Source: a virus (Duplodnaviria; Heunggongvirae; Uroviricota; Caudoviricetes). Taken from it: a DNA stretch of 64,000 nt. The notes under the pieces are model-generated. The model did no database searches, was not told the origin of the DNA, and worked only from the letters and a program-made list of their open reading frames with translations. The stretch lies in the IMG/VR virus record IMGVR_UViG_2724679226_000002, positions 1 to 64,000 of that record; one strand, 5' to 3'. This document shows positions 1-18,817 of this stretch, piece by piece (the stretch's first letter is position 1; each line of letters begins with the position of its first letter). Made by a program: the position numbers and the translations under genes.

Positions 1-1487
1 AGAATTTAGAATGTAAATACTTACTTCCCAATGGGCAATATTCCGCAGAAACGGTAAAAATTACCGGGAAAAATGAGGTAACATTTCCGATTCATTATAG
101 TTGCTTTACGGTCAATGGTTGGACAACATTAAGAATTACGTTAATCAACGGCAGCGATCGGGTAACGTTGGAAGATATTATCATTAAAACGAAAGAAACG
201 AAGCTCGGAGAGCCGTTCAGCAATACGCAAGTAGAAGAAGCTATTACCCAAGCGATTGAAGTAACTACATCCTCAATTTCAGCAGAAGGGGAAACTATTA
301 AGGAAGAACTTAGAAACTATATCCAAAAAGAAAAAAGCAAGTTAAAAGGAGAAAAAGGGGAAAAAGGAGAACCGGGAGAAAGAGGACCGATTGGAGAACA
401 AGGTCCTAGAGGATTTACAGGAGAACGAGGTCCACAAGGGGTACAAGGCGAGAAAGGTCTTACAGGTCCACGAGGACAGAAAGGAGATAGAGGAGTTGGA
501 ATCATATCGGTTACCGCAATAGATAACAACCGGGTGCGATTAGAATATGGAGACGGGCAAAGCACAGAAGTAGACATTCCTACCGTTGCAGGAAAACATG
601 GAAAGGACGGTATTGGAATTTTAGGAATTTCCTCTAGTCAAGAAGAGGAAACAGTAACTTTGCATTTTGATTTAACAAACTCTACCCGTGAAAATATAAG
701 TTTTACCGTACCGCAATCTTCTGGTAGTGGTAGTACGGCAAGTCCTTTAAAAATTGAATTCGAAGAAATTTTTAACGGGAATTCCAGTAATCTGGTATTT
801 GGGAAACCATTAGGAAATTACCAATTTTTACAAATCCAAAACACTCAACAAACGGCAACCATTCCCGCAAAAATAGGAGCAAATTTCAAATTTTGGTATG
901 CAAGTGGAGAAGTACAGGACGATAGAATTGTAATGACTTCTAGCGGAACTTACAAAGTATATGGGATTAAATTAAGGGGGCAAGTGTCCCCCGATATCAC
1001 AGCAGATTTATCGAATTACTATGACAAGGGACAATCGGATAAAAGATATGCTCGAAACAAGCATTCACATGATGAATTATTGTCACAAAACCAAGCAGAC
1101 AGGCTATATATCCCACAAAGTTTAGGATTGTCTTTTGCGAAACAAGATACTTCGGTTAGTTTTCAGAACATTACTGCAAGTGGAGATATTTTAGCACAAG
1201 GAACAGTGACAGGTCTTTCAGATAAAAGATTAAAACAAAATATTGAGAAAATACAAAACCCATTGAAAATTCTAAAAAAATTAAATGGATACACTTTCAC
1301 TATGAATAAAGAGAGGCACGTAGGAGTCATTGCACAAGAAGTTCAGAAAGCACTTCCTGAAGCTGTTCGAGAAACAGAGAACGGATATTTATCCGTAGCA
1401 TATGGAAATATGGTAGGGTTATTGATAGAAGCAAATAAGGAATTGCTAAAGAGAATCGAGGTGCTGGAAGATGTCATTAAACAGTAG
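1..1487 (+). CDS. Tail fibre protein, cut at its 5' end by the window. It has a collagen-like Gly-X-Y triple-helix region and a C-terminal intramolecular chaperone (peptidase S74 / endosialidase-type) domain.
   Basis: The reading frame is open from base 3, so the ATG at 168 is probably internal. The collagen-like run reads GEKGEKGEPGERGPIGEQGPRGFTGERGPQG. The C-terminus (SDKRLKQNIEKI...GYTFTMNKE..HVGVIAQEV) matches the self-cleaving chaperone domain of phage tail fibres. Confidence 0.8.
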   Translation, partial: NLECKYLLPNGQYSAETVKITGKNEVTFPIHYSCFTVNGWTTLRITLINGSDRVTLEDIIIKTKETKLGEPFSNTQVEEAITQAIEVTTSSISAEGETIKEELRNYIQKEKSKLKGEKGEKGEPGERGPIGEQGPRGFTGERGPQGVQGEKGLTGPRGQKGDRGVGIISVTAIDNNRVRLEYGDGQSTEVDIPTVAGKHGKDGIGILGISSSQEEETVTLHFDLTNSTRENISFTVPQSSGSGSTASPLKIEFEEIFNGNSSNLVFGKPLGNYQFLQIQNTQQTATIPAKIGANFKFWYASGEVQDDRIVMTSSGTYKVYGIKLRGQVSPDITADLSNYYDKGQSDKRYARNKHSHDELLSQNQADRLYIPQSLGLSFAKQDTSVSFQNITASGDILAQGTVTGLSDKRLKQNIEKIQNPLKILKKLNGYTFTMNKERHVGVIAQEVQKALPEAVRETENGYLSVAYGNMVGLLIEANKELLKRIEVLEDVIKQ

Positions 1488-2286
1488 TGGAAGAATATCG
1501 CTTAAAGATATTGCGAAAGAATTGGGAAAAGAAGGGAAGCAAATCTCTTTCAACGACCAAGATGTCTTAACGTTAGCAGGGAAAACCTCAGGGCAAGTTG
1601 TCCTTCCCAATGATTTTTGGGGGAAAAGTTATGCTTCCGTTCCTACGAAATATCCATATAATGCAGTAGTCACCGAAATGTATCTGTACGCACAGAACAT
1701 ATTTATAGTCTTGGAAGAAAGAGATTATCTACTTAAAAGTTTGTACTTCGGGGGAGGGACTGTCGATTGTATATTCGATTCAAAAGTTCCTTACGAAAAT
1801 CTTGTTATTGCTTTTGAAAATGGTACTAAATTATATATAAAAAAAGAATCAGATACGCAATTCGTTTTAGATAAAAATAAACCACCGATATTAATTGAGC
1901 AATCTTTTTCTGGACGTTTTAATATTTTAATAGAAGAAGTTGAAAATGAACCTTTAAAAAATACGGATGAGTATATTTTAACAGTAGGAGAAACAGGTAA
2001 ATCCTTTGGATATGTGGATGGGGTTGGGGATATAACTCCTAAAACATTTAAAAACCTTAATCTAATGGCTGTATACACAAGATACAATTACGTTACGATA
2101 GACCTCAAAGAAAAAACTGGGAACTCAAATACCTATCCCTCTGAAATAAATATCGAAATTGATAGTACCCAATTAAAAATGACGAAAAACTGGTTAATTA
2201 CAACTAGATACGAAGTATATAGTACTGCACTTTCACGAGTAATAAAAGATAAAAAAGAGCAAACTCTTAGAATTAAAATATGGTAA
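1471..2286 (+). CDS. hypothetical tail-fibre-associated protein
   Basis: 271-aa ORF that overlaps the tail fibre stop, placed in the tail and lysis end of the phage. Confidence 0.5.
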   Translation: MSLNSSGRISLKDIAKELGKEGKQISFNDQDVLTLAGKTSGQVVLPNDFWGKSYASVPTKYPYNAVVTEMYLYAQNIFIVLEERDYLLKSLYFGGGTVDCIFDSKVPYENLVIAFENGTKLYIKKESDTQFVLDKNKPPILIEQSFSGRFNILIEEVENEPLKNTDEYILTVGETGKSFGYVDGVGDITPKTFKNLNLMAVYTRYNYVTIDLKEKTGNSNTYPSEINIEIDSTQLKMTKNWLITTRYEVYSTALSRVIKDKKEQTLRIKIW

Positions 2287-4713: not shown

Positions 4714-5293
4714 GATGAAATTATTTAAAAATGTAGGGATTGAAGATTTAGAAAGTATCTTGAAAAACGGAATACTTCCAATTTCTGAGACTGGAAACGA
4801 TAACTGGGAAGAAGGAAAAAGAGGAAACAATGCAAAAGATGTAGTATACCTTTTTTCTCCTAAGTTAGAAGTAAACTCTTTCCCAAAAGCATACGGAATA
4901 GTGCTTTTAGAAGTAGAAGTAGAAGTAGAAGCACAATTAAATACTTTTGAAAAAAATGACGAACACATTGACGATTATGATGAATATATCGTAGATAGAG
5001 TTGAAGTTCAAGACATCAAAGCGGTATATATCCCTAAGATTTTTGAAGATAGAGTGAGAGAGTTTTTGACAGAAGAAACTTTGAAAAAAGTAACTTTTGT
5101 TGAAATTTCAGCAAAACACTATCAAGACTTTAACTTGATAGAAGCAGACGAAAAAACTCTTTCTGCGTTTGGAAAAACTGCTGAAATCGACTCTACTGAA
5201 TTCAATTTCTTTAGAGGTAAGAGAAAAGTTCAAGGTCTTTTCTCTGAAATCGAACAAATATTCGACCTATACAAAGTCGTTTATAAATTCTAA
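4714..5293 (+). CDS. Hypothetical 193-aa protein, read as a candidate type III toxin (ToxN/AbiQ-like?) or abortive-infection protein
   Basis: AAGGAG lies 8 nt before the ATG at 4714. The gene follows a repeat-plus-terminator arrangement. PKAYGIVLLEV weakly resembles the ToxN/AbiQ PK.FIG.VL motif as I remember it. A terminator hairpin follows at 5309-5335. Confidence 0.45.
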
Positions 5294-14823: not shown

Positions 14824-15080
14824 TTGACATCACACTCTTGCTCTTGTGGAAATGGAGTTACTGAAATTTCCCATTTTTTTGTTTTTTTGTCAATTTTCAG
14901 ATAACCGAATTCTTCTAATTCTTTTAAAGTTTTTTTTATTGTTTGAGTGCTTTCTTTGCAATATTTTTTTAGAATACAAATAGAAGCCCAATAGTTACCG
15001 GGTAAGTCTAACATCAAAGCTAGTAACCCTTTTGCTTTTAAAGTCATTTCTGTTTCTAACAAATAATTTCTTCTTCCCAT
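14820..15080 (-). CDS. winged-helix DNA-binding protein (replication-initiator N-terminal-like)
   Basis: 86 aa reading LLALMLDLPGNYWASICILKKYCKESTQTIKKTLKELEEFGYL, with AGGAGGTAAAAAATG as the ribosome-binding site. Confidence 0.45.
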   Translation of the reverse strand: MGRRNYLLETEMTLKAKGLLALMLDLPGNYWASICILKKYCKESTQTIKKTLKELEEFGYLKIDKKTKKWEISVTPFPQEQECDVK

Positions 15081-15094
15081 TTTTTACCTCCTTA

Positions 15095-15210
15095 AATTTC
15101 GGAGAGCCTTGACTAATACTCTCTCTTTGTTGTTTCAATAAGCAATTCCTAATCCCTCAGAGCTTGTCAAGGCTACGAGGGGGAATTGCCAATTCAAACA
15201 ACAAAATTTC
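15095..15210. promoter_or_regulatory. interleaved inverted repeats upstream of the replication operon
   Basis: GCCTTGAC pairs with GTCAAGGC, and TTGTTGTTTCAATAAGCAATTCC pairs with GGAATTGCCAATTCAAACAACAA. The order is A-B-A'-B'. Confidence 0.45.
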
Positions 15211-15280
15211 TGGTAATTTATATTTATTTCTAATAATTTCTATTTCTTAAATATAAAAATGGACTTTTTTATATTTAAGA

Positions 15281-15604
15281 ATTTTTATAGACCAGTTTTT
15301 CTTAAAAAACTGAACTATGGATTTTTATAGACCAGTTTTTTGCATTTTTCTGTACTGTGCGAAACTATGCGAATAATTTTTCTTTTATTTGCAATAAAAA
15401 AATGAAGAAAATACGAATGGACGCGAATACGTACGAAAACTTTTCGCATGATTTTCTCACGAATAACACAAGATATTTTTCTTTTATTTTCAATACTTTT
15501 TTTATCTTTTAAAAGAAAAATCTCACAAATATCTCACGAATAACGCAAGATTCTCATAAATATATATCCAACTGTCGATTATTTGTCGACAGTTCATAAA
15601 CTCA
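15281..15604. repeat. origin-like repeat region
   Basis: ATTTTTATAGACCAGTTTTT occurs twice (15281 and 15321), TCTCACGAATAACRCAAGAT occurs twice (15465 and 15532), and the palindrome AACTGTCGATTATTTGTCGACAGTT lies at 15578. Confidence 0.5.
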
Positions 15605-16312
15605 ACGCTACTTAACTTTACTCAACACTTTTTAAACATAAGTGTAAATAACTGATAGTTTCTAATCATGTTGCCGACGTCAGGAACGTGTTCAAAACTT
15701 CAATTCGAGGGCTCTTAGATTGGATACAAAACTTAGACAACTATGATAAGAAACTATATTTTAAGGAGTAGAGCCCTCTAATTCAAGGGGCAAAACGAGA
15801 GAATGCTCGCACAAATGCTTACCTCATTCTGAGACTCTGTTTGCCCTGTTGCAACATTGAACCAAGTTTTTGCTTAAAGTCTATTGAACTTGGAAAAAAG
15901 ACTTTGTAAAGAGAGTCGGAAGAATTGAATTTCCCGGAGCTACCTACACCACTACTCTCATATTAAAGCGTCCTTAACCTGGTCCACTGCTTCAATTTCT
16001 CTCTAGCTATTCAATGGTCCGAGTTTTCCTCGCAAGTATCACTCGTTAAGAGAGAGCCGTTTGCTCGTGCGTTAAGGACTTTATCATTCCGTTTTCGGAT
16101 TCGCACGGTAACCCTTTATTCGTACAAAACAATCCTCGTAATTCTTGACGACTGCAAACACTCGAATAAATCCGGTAGTGATTTGTCAATATCGATATGA
16201 CGGGAACAGCAAGGCTCGAACTTGCACTCTCCTTGGGTTAAACAACTTAGCCTGAAAATTTATGACTAAATCTAGCAAGGTGCTATTTCCAAATTAAACT
16301 ATGTTCCCATAA
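15605..16312. ncRNA. candidate large structured non-coding RNA in an ORF-free, GC-elevated segment
   Basis: No ORF of 60 aa or more on any frame across about 1.5 kb. It is visibly GC-richer than the flanks. It has several long-range complementary pairs, such as CGAGGGCTC at 15706 with GAGCCCTC at 15771, and GGGCAAAAC at 15788 with GTTTGCCC at 15839. It also has a perfect T-arm-like hairpin (GCAAG-TTCGAGC-CTTGC, minus strand, 16209-16225) bounded by GGGAACA at 16202 and TGTTCCC at 16303. Confidence 0.35.
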
Positions 16313-16313
16313 A

Positions 16314-16398
16314 TGGCGGAAGTAACAAGAATTGAACTTGTAAAGGAATTATCCTCACAGATTAGCAATCTGTTGCCATACCATTAGGCGATACTTCC
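16314..16398 (-). tRNA. tRNA-Ser (anticodon GCU) with a long variable arm and an encoded CCA
   Basis: Minus-strand sequence GGAAGTATCGCCTAATGGTATGGCAACAGATTGCTAATCTGTGAGGATAATTCCTTTACAAGTTCAATTCTTGTTACTTCCGCCA. Folds by hand to a cloverleaf with a 7-bp acceptor stem, a 5-bp anticodon stem, a type-II variable arm and a 5-bp T stem. Confidence 0.85.
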
Positions 16399-16624
16399 AA
16401 ATGATGACTTTTTTACAAGAAGTCTAACTTGTCTAGTGTAAGGAGAGGCACTTTTTATTATTGGGAAGTGTAACCCATTTTTAGTTAGTCAATATTTATT
16501 GAATTTCTTACTCCAAAAAGTTACAATGTAAATAAAATTTTTGGAGTAAGAAAACATGTTTAAAATTTTCCACTTCCTGCTCCTTTTTCTATTCTGAATA
16601 TCTTTAAATACGAATAAAACGTAT

Positions 16625-16831
16625 TTAAAGAATAAAAATTTTTTCTCCTGTTAACTCTTCTATTTTTTTTAGGGTTACAGTAGAAATATGATCTTCTTCT
16701 TTTAATGTCTTAAATTGTCTAGAAAGAGTAGTAGGAGTAATACCTAATGCTTTTGCAACTTTAGCTTTACTCACGTTTCCTCTAATTAGACATATTTCTA
16801 TTTTTTTATACAATTTTTCTCCAAATTTCAT
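16625..16831 (-). CDS. small HTH DNA-binding protein
   Basis: VSKAKVAKALGITPTTLSRQFKTLKEEDHIS is a helix-turn-helix. The promoter region upstream contains ATATACG..CGTAT. Confidence 0.55.
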   Translation of the reverse strand: MKFGEKLYKKIEICLIRGNVSKAKVAKALGITPTTLSRQFKTLKEEDHISTVTLKKIEELTGEKIFIL

Positions 16832-16991
16832 TTTTTTACTCCTTTGTTAGAAATATTATATACGTTTTTGACGTATTAGTCAATAACGAATGTAAATTTT
16901 TTCATTTTTTAGAAAAAAGCATAAAATTATAATAAAAAAACAGGTCATAAAACCTGTTTTGGTAGAAAATAAAAACCCCACGAGTGTGGGG

Positions 16992-17570
16992 CTAGATATT
17001 TGCTGTAACTACTTCTAAATTCAAATTTTGATAACTAATATTTTGACAGTCTTTGTCATGGCTAACAAAAACATAATTTTCTAATTCACAAAAATTCAAT
17101 AAATAATTATCATTGAAATCGAAGGCCATAATGCCATTTCCTAACATACAATTGTTTGAAAGGACTGAAAAATTATCATCTACTTTTGAGCAAAATGTTA
17201 ATATGTTTTGTGAAATTTCACTAGCTATATAATTTTTATCATTTATAAAACTTTGACTTTTTCTGTAAATCCTTTTATAATTACGAGAACTGTATTGCTT
17301 GTTCTGTGAATTTAAAAAAAATTTACCCCTTTCCCTCAAATATACATTAAATATTTCGGAAACTTCTATGGACAAAATAGCAATTTTGCAACCATTTGAT
17401 AAGATGTTAGATAATAATGAAGAGTAAAGAGCTGCATTATTTTGATGATATCCACTTTGGTTCCTTTGTAAGGGTAATAAATACAGCCAGATATTTGTAT
17501 CAAAAATATATTTTTTTGTAGGTTGGACTTGATGAGAGGAGATGTGTGATATTTTCATACTTTTAATCAA
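16992..17570 (-). CDS. PIN-domain protein (putative ribonuclease effector)
   Basis: The N-terminus (KKYIFDTNIWLYLL) is the PIN signature with its first acidic residue. The gene overlaps the upstream STAS-like gene by 8 nt. Confidence 0.55.
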   Translation of the reverse strand: MIKSMKISHISSHQVQPTKKYIFDTNIWLYLLPLQRNQSGYHQNNAALYSSLLSNILSNGCKIAILSIEVSEIFNVYLRERGKFFLNSQNKQYSSRNYKRIYRKSQSFINDKNYIASEISQNILTFCSKVDDNFSVLSNNCMLGNGIMAFDFNDNYLLNFCELENYVFVSHDKDCQNISYQNLNLEVVTANI

Positions 17571-17871
17571 CTCCTCTTCTATACAGTTTTAAAGCGTTTA
17601 TTTTTACTTGCTTTATTTGACTTAAAGAAATTTCTTTTGCATTTTCAAATTTAACTAATTTTTCAACTTCTTCTTCAGTATAATCTTTAAATAATTCGCC
17701 ATATGCTAAATTGAAAAATGTTGAAATTGTCATTTCGATTCCTTCAAAATCTAGAATTATTGGAATTTCCCCTAATGAAATGTTTTTTACAATGCTATCA
17801 TAAAGAGTTTTACCTTTTTCTGCAGAAACAGCAAATTGTCCACCGATAATTTCAAAAACTTTAATTTTCAT
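17563..17871 (-). CDS. STAS-like (anti-sigma-factor antagonist / DUF4325-like) protein
   Basis: 102 aa reading IPIILDFEGIEMTISTFFNLAYGEL, with the size and pattern of a SpoIIAA-type STAS domain. It is coupled to both neighbours. Confidence 0.5.
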   Translation of the reverse strand: MKIKVFEIIGGQFAVSAEKGKTLYDSIVKNISLGEIPIILDFEGIEMTISTFFNLAYGELFKDYTEEEVEKLVKFENAKEISLSQIKQVKINALKLYRRGVD

Positions 17872-17887
17872 CGTTATCCCTCCTCTT

Positions 17888-18817
17888 TTAATAATAATAA
17901 TGTATTTTTTTCTTTAAGTCAATAATTATTGTAATAATTGTTCCCGGAATTTTATATGTAAGATTTTTCATAACTTCTCTTTTTTTTATATCTCCATTTT
18001 TAGAATAAAAAGCTGCTTCATAAAATCCTTTTCCACTAATTATTTGAATTTTTCCCTCTATTTTGTGCATAAAACGAAAAAGTGTATACAATCCGAGTCC
18101 ACCAGATGTAGTTTTCGTAGTATGACTATTTTTTAATGCCCACTTTATACAATCAATATCGTCATTTTTCTTTATAAATGAATTGATATTATCATAAAAA
18201 GTTTCGCCTAGATTAGACATAGAAAAGATAAATTTTCGAGAAACTGGAAAAAACTGACCACAAGTTGATATAAAACTAGAGTTTGTATGTTGTATAACAT
18301 TTGCACATAATTCTGTAGTACATTCTAAAATTTTATTTTTTATTATTTCAGAGACACCATCAAATCTGTAATGAGAAATAACTTCTGTCAACATATAATC
18401 GCAAAATTTTTCAGTAGTCTTTTCTTCTTCTTCTTTTTCTATTCTTTTTATTTCATGTCTTGCAAATTGCACTGTTGTTTTTTTTCTGTCTTGAAGTATT
18501 TCTTCTTCAGATACAAGTTTTTCAGGTGAATTATTAAGATATCGATTTCTACATAACAAATTTTTAATTTCATCATTGAAACCACTGAATGTACTTTGAC
18601 CTAATTTTTCAAAATGATATCTTTTTATCATATCTAAAAAAACAACCATGTTGCCATCAATCTGAATTGTTTCAGAGTAATCAAAATGTACAACGTTCTC
18701 TCCTAAAACGTTTGATAATTTTTGAATTTTATCAAAAAAAATGGCAATTGTTTCATAAGTAAAAAAATCATTTCTTATTTTTATTGGTGCTGTTAATTTA
18801 TGTATATTTTTTTTCAT
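17888..18817 (-). CDS. GHKL-family ATPase (anti-sigma-factor-type serine kinase-like) with an N-terminal accessory domain
   Basis: An N-box (ELCANVIQHT) and a G2-box (TSGGLGLYTLF) in the C-terminal half mark it as HATPase_c-like. Confidence 0.55.
   Translation of the reverse strand: MKKNIHKLTAPIKIRNDFFTYETIAIFFDKIQKLSNVLGENVVHFDYSETIQIDGNMVVFLDMIKRYHFEKLGQSTFSGFNDEIKNLLCRNRYLNNSPEKLVSEEEILQDRKKTTVQFARHEIKRIEKEEEEKTTEKFCDYMLTEVISHYRFDGVSEIIKNKILECTTELCANVIQHTNSSFISTCGQFFPVSRKFIFSMSNLGETFYDNINSFIKKNDDIDCIKWALKNSHTTKTTSGGLGLYTLFRFMHKIEGKIQIISGKGFYEAAFYSKNGDIKKREVMKNLTYKIPGTIITIIIDLKKKIHYYY

Follow-up and report, generated by a model that had tools for sequence, protein, structure and literature searches.

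Structured non-coding RNAs are familiar from the early regions of phages and from the neighbourhoods of phage tRNA genes. The nutR/boxB elements of lambda and the put RNA of HK022 are short structured RNAs that act in cis just downstream of the early promoter and cro and upstream of the replication genes; put measures about 70 nt and carries conserved unpaired bases flanking covarying stems. The CI RNA of P4 and the C4 RNA of P1 derive from the leader of an operon for replication or antirepression, out of which RNase P cuts them, and the tRNA cluster of T4 encodes two stable RNAs of unknown function, species 1 and 2. The larger GOLLD and ROOL RNAs are thought to be linked to tRNA arrays through release by tRNA processing. 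They are prophage-borne, lie next to or interleaved with tRNAs, extend over hundreds of nucleotides and are GC-elevated and multi-stemmed (PMC5737381, PMC12990946); GOLLD has a variable 5' domain, sometimes with an embedded tRNA (PMC12990946). Here we analyse a locus of comparable appearance in a Fusobacterium prophage, within a stretch of 64,000 nt (IMG/VR record IMGVR_UViG_2724679226_000002; hereafter the window) that is AT-rich (29.6% GC) and densely coding. Segment 15605–16398 of the window had been read as a candidate large ornate RNA of the GOLLD or ROOL kind (hereafter, the original prediction). As judged by comparison with relatives, the segment is non-coding and conserved, folds as RNA with covariation and adjoins tRNA genes, and we assign a probability of about 0.5 to the reading that the element is a long, modular, tRNA-punctuated leader RNA of a temperate Fusobacterium phage early operon, encoded on the minus strand and running from a cro-like gene towards the replication genes.

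The composition of the locus agrees with the original prediction. No open reading frame (ORF) of 60 aa or more is present in any frame of 15081–16624 according to the ORF list, the longest being 51 aa; at 1544 nt this is the largest ORF-free gap of the window, the runner-up measuring 575 nt. The GC content of 15690–16310 is 0.401, about 3 standard deviations (sd) above the mean of 600-nt windows (0.295, sd 0.033), and values of 0.36–0.44 were obtained across 15.6–16.4 kb, so the segment is indeed richer in GC than its flanks. The sole other stretch of the window that equals 15690–16310 in GC is a collagen-like tail-fibre gene with Gly-X-Y repeats (168–1487, plus strand). The folding energy of the segment gave a z of about −2.2 on both strands, which alone would be modest evidence; the case for structure is made by comparison with relatives.

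Against phage phiFN37, the region gave three matching pieces covering 63% of the query at 91% identity. A short form of about 330 nt without tRNAs occurs in phage phiBB and in IMG/VR contigs, and exact-protein look-ups of both flanking genes yielded 19 further loci. The assembly GCA_000158235.1 is 99.3% identical to the window at this locus. More phages were retrieved through their replication proteins and form a second set (group 2, as opposed to group 1 of the window), which consists of human oral metagenome phages together with Funu2 (of F. nucleatum 7_1) and FNU4 and carries a GC-elevated non-coding stretch at the equivalent position. The group-2 element is not detected by BLAST from the window, and two modules, designated domain A and module C, are common to both groups. 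The 5' hairpin pattern of group 2 was found in 82 IMG/VR contigs (L249–L330). The non-coding length from this hairpin to the first gene ranges from 314 to 1241 nt. The 5' module itself (for example, at approximately 1977–2070 of L193) consists of a hairpin UCUAAGG-N5-CCUUAG, followed by ACANAUAG and then by a covarying long helix.

Domain A (15995–16058, minus strand) is the most widely common module, a hairpin of about 65–80 nt built from an outer helix CUCUCU/AGAGAG, a 5' loop UAAC, an inner hairpin closed by a pentaloop (UGCGA in the window versus a CAAGA consensus) and a 3' loop GGAC...AUAGCU. Pairing reached 98.2% in the group-1 alignment (A4) and 97.9% in an alignment of 8 group-2 sequences (A2), where 17 of 24 pairs were changed on both sides; none of 500 shuffles reached that, and RNAalifold concurs. 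Across 50 distinct sequences, 95.9% of cells were paired and 23 of 26 pairs had both sides changed, compared with at most 52% paired in slid controls, although this alignment was fitted to the model and is thus biased towards the structure. The exceptions comprised 15 G·U cells and no A·C cells. About 17 unpaired positions are near-invariant, namely UAA, the CAAGA pentaloop, GGA-A and UAG..AGCU. A covariance model built from the 8 group-2 sequences alone found domain A in group 1 (L176, phiFN37, L016/L022, phiBB and the L156 type) with E = 2e-7 to 4.5e-3, and gave 66 bits for Funu2. Among the retrieved loci, which the model searches covered, domain A was matched in 64 of 80 group-2 loci, uniformly on one strand.

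Module C (15788–15846, minus strand) is a long helix GGGCAAA../..UUUGCCC closing a small three-way junction, in which AGAAU and GGUAAG are conserved. The complementary pair GGGCAAAAC/GTTTGCCC noted in the original prediction is present inside it. Its group-2 homologue is formed by GGAUAAAAC/GUUUUAUCC, as compared with GGGCAAA/UUUGCCC in the window, so that the long helix covaries between the groups; in alignment A3 this helix is 98.5% paired, with 2 pairs changed on both sides and 3 G·U. In group 2, module C is nested in a helix that other phages merely cap with a small loop, and it is optional: in a tally of the 82 loci, 58 had domain A, 22 had module C and 20 had neither. FNU4 likewise has no domain A. 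From these alignments, domain A and module C are at least two well-supported new motifs, conserved and covarying across distant phages.

The strand was assigned from three features, which together point to an RNA on the minus strand of the window: G·U pairs without A·C, the orientation of the tRNA genes and a terminator in L177. In the 155–180 kb contigs L177 and L174, only a 5' hairpin (H0), a tRNA-like unit (tRNA-X), a linker and domain A are present; a 12-bp intrinsic terminator comes next, on the strand of the tRNA.

Two tRNA-shaped units lie within the segment. The predicted tRNA-Ser(GCU) neighbour was confirmed as a canonical gene at 16314–16398 (minus strand; ARAGORN, and Rfam tRNA 59.1 bits at 16317–16398) whose 7-nt anticodon loop presents the anticodon, as expected of a decoding tRNA. 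The second unit, tRNA-X (16201–16308, minus strand), had been overlooked. What had been described as a tRNA-like T-arm hairpin at 16209–16225 is a T arm, but it belongs to this second gene; and the GGGAACA (16203–16209) and TGTTCCC (16302–16308) that had been taken as boundaries of the segment are only about 100 nt apart and form the acceptor stem of tRNA-X. Because both units fall inside the reported interval, about 200 nt of it is tRNA or tRNA-like. tRNA-X scores 42.7 bits with the Rfam tRNA model (RF00005; gathering score 29), has acceptor, D, anticodon and T stems with a UUCGAGC T-loop, and ends in GUCA in the window and in ACCA in phiFN37 and L177. In place of a 7-nt anticodon loop it has a 40-nt insert (counted as 38 nt of insertion in the Rfam alignment) containing an 8-bp helix (16245–16271) capped by an 11-nt loop, which is kept in 5 distinct sequences. 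In these sequences 96.6% of cells are paired, 3 pairs have both sides changed and 17 cells are G·U; read from the other strand, the G·U pairs of the insert helix would be A·C mismatches. Since a helix has replaced the anticodon loop, tRNA-X cannot decode. It thus resembles canonical tRNA genes in scoring above the gathering threshold, in its covarying acceptor and anticodon stems and in the ACCA encoded in two lineages, but differs in having a helix-forming insert with no intron signature.

ARAGORN with default settings found tRNA-Ser(GCU) and not tRNA-X, and the phiFN37 record labels the latter "tRNA-OTHER". With the -i option, ARAGORN calls tRNA-X a tRNA-Ser(AGA) with a 33-nt intron, a label that rests on anticodon position only. 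We rejected this call, given the short variable arm, the lack of a splice motif, the abnormal A34 and U37 and the insert being a conserved helix. The insert gave no match to group I intron models, and inspection by eye found no bulge-helix-bulge, the bulges being on one side. In another Fusobacterium phage group (L224 at 2106–2185, and also L226, L228, L231 and L244), a tRNA whose anticodon loop has 8 nt (4-base anticodon "gctc") lies upstream of an O-like replication gene, and L215 has a tRNA-Ser(GCU) in the corresponding neighbourhood.

Beyond the tRNAs, 15698–16200 (minus strand, about 500–510 nt) is, by comparison, a string of independently folding RNA modules that are kept, lost, swapped or reordered in relatives. 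Upstream of the tRNAs or of domain A, all group-1 forms conserve the H0 hairpin GUUAG-ACUUC..AAAAAAGUC (16406–16428, minus strand), whose stem covaries as GACUU/AAGUC, GGCUU/AAGCC, UACUU/AAGUA and GUCUU/AAGGC, as judged by eye and not by a tool count. Module M3 (16080–16200, minus strand) is restricted to window-type phages and consists of predicted nested hairpins CGGAUU/AAUCCG and UUUAUUCG/CGAAUAAA; with so little variation among the sequences, this structure stays at the level of a prediction. Its place in phiFN37 and L177 is taken by a 65-nt linker of unrelated sequence. Domain A is enclosed by a helix (15970–16079, minus strand) of GUCCUUAAC (16071–16079) with GUUAAGGAC (15970–15978). In L156 and L162 one of its pairs has undergone a compensatory change from U-A to C-G; the recombinant L165 has a mismatch.

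Downstream of this helix lie module E (15911–15959, minus strand), a minihelix with the shape of an acceptor plus T arm (GAGAGU...GGAAA-UUCAAUU-CUUCC-GACUCUC), and hairpin F (15862–15893, minus strand; CCAAGUU...AACUUGG). The T arm of module E is perfect in L166 and phiFN37, and the module gives no tRNA-model match even at E ≤ 10. It is absent from L156 and L162, where modules E and C are cleanly deleted as a block of about 175 nt. Module D (15698–15787, minus strand) is variable: a hairpin GAGGGCUC/GAGCCCUC, AT-rich at its top, lies between the conserved flanks CUUGAAUU and AUUGAAG; in phiFN37 and L166 this hairpin is swapped at its site for an unrelated hairpin, GGUAGCUCC/GGAGCUACU. The complementary pair CGAGGGCTC/GAGCCCTC of the original prediction was located here (15698–15715/15770–15787), and both this pair and GGGCAAAAC/GTTTGCCC are in relatives either retained or exchanged for other hairpins. 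Group 1 has the modules in the order A, C, D, and in group 2 module C precedes domain A. As modules are both optional and reordered, they behave as cassettes, which is not the architecture of GOLLD or ROOL.

GenBank lists five "hypothetical proteins" of 29–42 aa over these modules in phiFN37 (L001, 4112–4942) and one 66-aa coding sequence (CDS) in phiBB (L002, 3131–3331). A protein-coding reading was considered and rejected. The phiBB CDS, which covers H0 and domain A, is broken in relatives by a homopolymer run of 6–8 bases, and nothing in the window corresponds to the phiFN37 mini-CDSs, whose frames are disrupted by indels. These small CDSs are probably spurious and are not conserved; hence the homologues carry no protein gene at this position, which the original prediction had named as the finding that would speak against an RNA.

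The element has a constant genomic setting. Directly upstream of it lies a 68-aa helix-turn-helix cro-like gene (16625–16831, minus strand; weak Pfam HTH_Crp_2), itself preceded by a sigma-70-like putative early promoter TTGACT-17-TATAAT (16855–16883, minus strand), with 11 of 12 consensus matches and identified by consensus match only. The element is likewise downstream of the switch genes (repressor or cro-like) in phiFN37, phiBB, Funu2 and FNU4, and it precedes at least nine unrelated kinds of first gene, mostly replication initiators. Such a constant position before unrelated first genes indicates that the element travels with the early-promoter side. An attenuator reading was tried and rejected: canonical terminators before the first gene were absent from the window and from the short-form L022, and were present in 4 of 68 distinct group-2 leaders.

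Taken as a leader, the element would be a string of cassettes in the order H0, tRNA-Ser(GCU), tRNA-X, M3, domain A in its enclosing helix, E and F, C, and D. The whole stretch would be transcribed from the early promoter at 16883–16855, running through the element, and RNase P and RNase Z would excise the two tRNA-shaped units, so that the cro message would be separated from a replication message beginning with structured modules. Domain A would probably be the functional core, because of its approximately 17 conserved unpaired bases, and would act in cis on the transcript or on the transcribing polymerase, through read-through, processing or stability, thereby setting the timing and strength of replication-gene expression.

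The lambdoid nut and put RNAs are positional counterparts of such an arrangement. The element was found in the sense orientation between the early promoter and cro on one side and the delayed-early genes on the other, and is carried with the switch/immunity module whatever replication genes follow. The likeness lies in position and in general build, put too having conserved unpaired bases around covarying stems, and not in any demonstrated similarity of sequence or structure. The leader of the Fusobacterium phages is much longer and includes tRNAs; a search of the Funu2 record (38.8 kb, a partial genome) for a second domain A found one copy only, as opposed to the left and right copies of lambdoid phages; and a downstream terminator right after domain A was identified only in L177. 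A read-through role is putative. The T4, P4 and P1 RNAs offer another partial parallel, since here too a phage replication (primase-helicase) operon has a non-coding RNA in its leader and tRNA-like shapes could recruit RNase P, but there is no homology and no Rfam match to these RNAs over the element.

Several observations weigh against the leader reading. The tRNA-X and domain A unit of L177 and L174 has its own terminator and is not beside replication genes, which suits a free-standing small RNA better than a leader. In L166-type prophages the modules are separated from the replication leader by two ORFs and a region resembling an origin, and a raised GC content characterises stable RNAs more than leaders. 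Each module, including domain A, is missing somewhere (FNU4; 20 of 82 group-2 loci), so none can be essential for replication-gene expression. With the group-2 model, the divergent domain A of the window obtains a weak score of 12.7 bits (E = 0.03 in 2 kb), and its membership relies on the group-1 alignment. Finally, both transcription through the region and the RNase P and RNase Z cuts are inferred from sequence.

Some of the same observations favour an alternative in which the modules are free-standing, stable, trans-acting RNAs, co-transcribed with the tRNAs, freed by tRNA-processing enzymes and acting on host or phage targets, an arrangement that would resemble the two T4 RNAs. The tRNAs adjoin on the same strand and share the raised GC, the self-terminated L177/L174 unit lies outside the replication context, the modules are autonomous cassettes, and domain A is rich in conserved unpaired bases. 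The top loop of the group-2 P2 helix, being C-rich and resembling an anti-Shine–Dalgarno (anti-SD) sequence (CCCCUC or CUCCUCC), would also suit such a role. We nonetheless consider this alternative unlikely: in the window, the modules are followed by no terminator or defined 3' end ahead of the next gene, and only 4 of 68 distinct group-2 leaders had a terminator; orientation and position are consistently those of a 5' leader; and most group-2 elements have no tRNA to serve as a processing site.

It is improbable, by our assessment, that the conserved hairpins act as DNA, that is, as single-stranded DNA (ssDNA) or DNA origin sites for priming or initiator loading, for which ARRPOF and GEBRO, two structured motifs linked to plasmid replication, would be precedents. 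Replication-linked structured motifs have been described in Fusobacterium plasmids, and according to the authors these may be ssDNA (PMC5737381). The element does lie beside iterons, AT-rich repeats and replication genes, and since ssDNA tolerates G·T pairs, covariation alone cannot tell RNA from ssDNA. However, the features that look DNA-level fall outside the modules. They comprise AT-rich direct and inverted repeats with a GC content of 0.20–0.28 (15240–15560), an inverted repeat whose stem covaries with phiFN37 (15570–15594), three GTTGAGTNNN iterons with 10-bp spacing (15597–15626) and an imperfect CCGACGUCGG palindrome (15674–15684) within the part 15570–15690; from its sequence, 15240–15690 as a whole is probably a DNA-level origin/operator region of this replication module and not RNA. 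Moreover, the element goes with the switch side and is not tied to one initiator type, L185-group phages have the same initiator without the element, bona fide tRNA genes lie on the same strand, and the L177 unit ends in a transcription terminator. In L156 and L166 the CCGACGTCGG-type palindrome of the 15570–15690 part is duplicated along with its GAATTGAAGTTTTGAACAC flank.

The reading of the segment as a single large ornate RNA of the GOLLD/ROOL kind, with one conserved multi-domain fold of 0.6–0.8 kb, matches the locus in general appearance: it is phage-borne, adjoins tRNAs, and is GC-rich, multi-stemmed and several hundred nucleotides long. Searches with Rfam models were run at the gathering score and then at E ≤ 10 with permissive filters on stretches of 526–1701 nt, both strands. 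ROOL (RF03087) gave no match on 15000–16700 or 15680–16205, nor in phiFN37, phiBB, L193, L204, L198 or L177, and GOLLD (RF01998), including its conserved 3' domain, gave none in the region. The covariance-model checks proposed with the original prediction (GOLLD, ROOL, HEARO and intron models) thus returned no match to any; its alternative of a group I or II intron remnant also found no support, neither intron type being matched at E ≤ 10. RNase P, transfer-messenger RNA and, tRNA aside, other Rfam models had no match over the element at this threshold, with the same outcome in the relatives; hits of the miRNA, NRON and Phe-leader models, all at E > 0.3, amount to noise. Because no module matches a described RNA family, the element is not a GOLLD or ROOL RNA. 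The clean deletion of the E and C block in L156 and L162, the A–C versus C–A order and the lack of any universal module argue further against one fold. The element also differs from ROOL and GOLLD in its small conserved units (about 60–80 nt), optional and reordered, and in its placement as the 5' leader of an early/replication operon. Model searches and module shuffling therefore largely refute this reading, which we regard as very improbable. Of the original proposal, a non-coding, conserved, covarying RNA outside the Rfam families stands, and the single ornate fold does not. The element is absent from Rfam 15 and unannotated in four published phage genomes.

Least probable of all is a decaying phage tRNA array whose modules are eroded tRNA genes with functionless stems. 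In its favour, tRNA-X is aberrant, module E combines the outline of an acceptor and T arm with a loop UUCAAUU, module C contains an acceptor-like helix of 7 bp, and odd tRNAs with 8-nt anticodon loops occupy the corresponding place in other Fusobacterium phages. Against it, no additional tRNA-model matches appear at E ≤ 10, the layout of domain A is not tRNA-like, and across distant phages tRNA-X, domain A and module C have their helices preserved by compensatory changes, which indicates selection and not decay. ARAGORN in mitochondrial mode made 26 calls in 1.5 kb, which we treated as noise, and as weak tRNA-model matches were also lacking, we rejected a degenerate-tRNA reading of all modules.

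FuFi-1, skipping-rope and ARRPOF are, like the present modules, structured motifs of orphan status, known from Fusobacteria or from the replication regions of plasmids (PMC5737381). They have no Rfam match over the element. The first two occur in the same phage contigs: FuFi-1 matches L198 at 1467–1701 (minus strand, 107.7 bits), on the opposite strand and upstream of the element, and skipping-rope matches L177 at 4937–5007 (plus strand, 65.3 bits), 2.4 kb from the element. A search of a plasmid collection for the element gave no match. A pattern scan of genome contigs with GGCAAAACGAGAGN{30,60}TTGCCCTG returned 12 chance matches, none from Fusobacterium, and the 14-mer CTCTGTTTGCCCTG gave largely chance matches on viral contigs.

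On the downstream side, the replication gene is preceded by a structured leader of its own (15078–15202, minus strand), with a long closing helix, two inner helices and no Rfam match. The loop of one hairpin (AGCCUUGAC) pairs with GUCAAGGCU near the ribosome-binding site to form a pseudoknot, beside an anti-SD/SD hairpin, and all these pairings covary across at least five variants (phiBB, L021, group 2, L204 and Funu2). The leader looks like a pseudoknot-controlled translational leader, reminiscent of the repZ leaders of IncB/IncI. A pairing of domain A (CUCUCUCUU) with this leader (AAGAGAGAG), in trans or in cis, was considered and dismissed as a polypyrimidine coincidence, as it does not covary in group 2, and inspection by eye found no stretches of the modules that are complementary to the leader downstream and covary with it. 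The palindromic loops of domain A (UAGCUA, AGCUAGCU and CAGCUG) were likewise rejected as dimerisation sites, only AGCU being truly conserved. On the other side, upstream of the cro-like gene (16992–18817, minus strand), lie three accessory genes, encoding a 192-aa protein with a PIN-like N-terminus (FDTNIW), a 102-aa DUF4325 protein and a 309-aa protein, which together may be a prophage-borne defence/exclusion cassette.

Overall, the element is a new motif set within a familiar kind, the structured non-coding RNAs of phage early regions and phage tRNA neighbourhoods. The combination of large size, high GC, tRNA adjacency and phage origin does not by itself identify a GOLLD or ROOL RNA, since a cassette-like leader gives the same signature. 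Temperate Fusobacterium phages are under development against F. nucleatum and F. necrophorum with their early regulatory region unannotated: the published genomes of Funu2 and FNU4 leave 750–800 nt blank here, and those of phiFN37 and phiBB fill the space with mini-ORFs that are probably spurious. This region holds domain A, module C, a pseudoknotted replication-gene leader and a tRNA mimic, which are targets for the study of replication timing after the lysis–lysogeny switch. It is possible, though rather doubtful, that domain A represents a new functional RNA class present in most temperate Fusobacterium phages, of about 80 nt with two stacked covarying helices, which could modify RNA polymerase in a factor-independent manner like put, sense a ligand or process itself. 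If so, the window would be its most elaborate setting, a tRNA-punctuated leader that retains a tRNA mimic, unable to decode, as a handle for processing or recognition.

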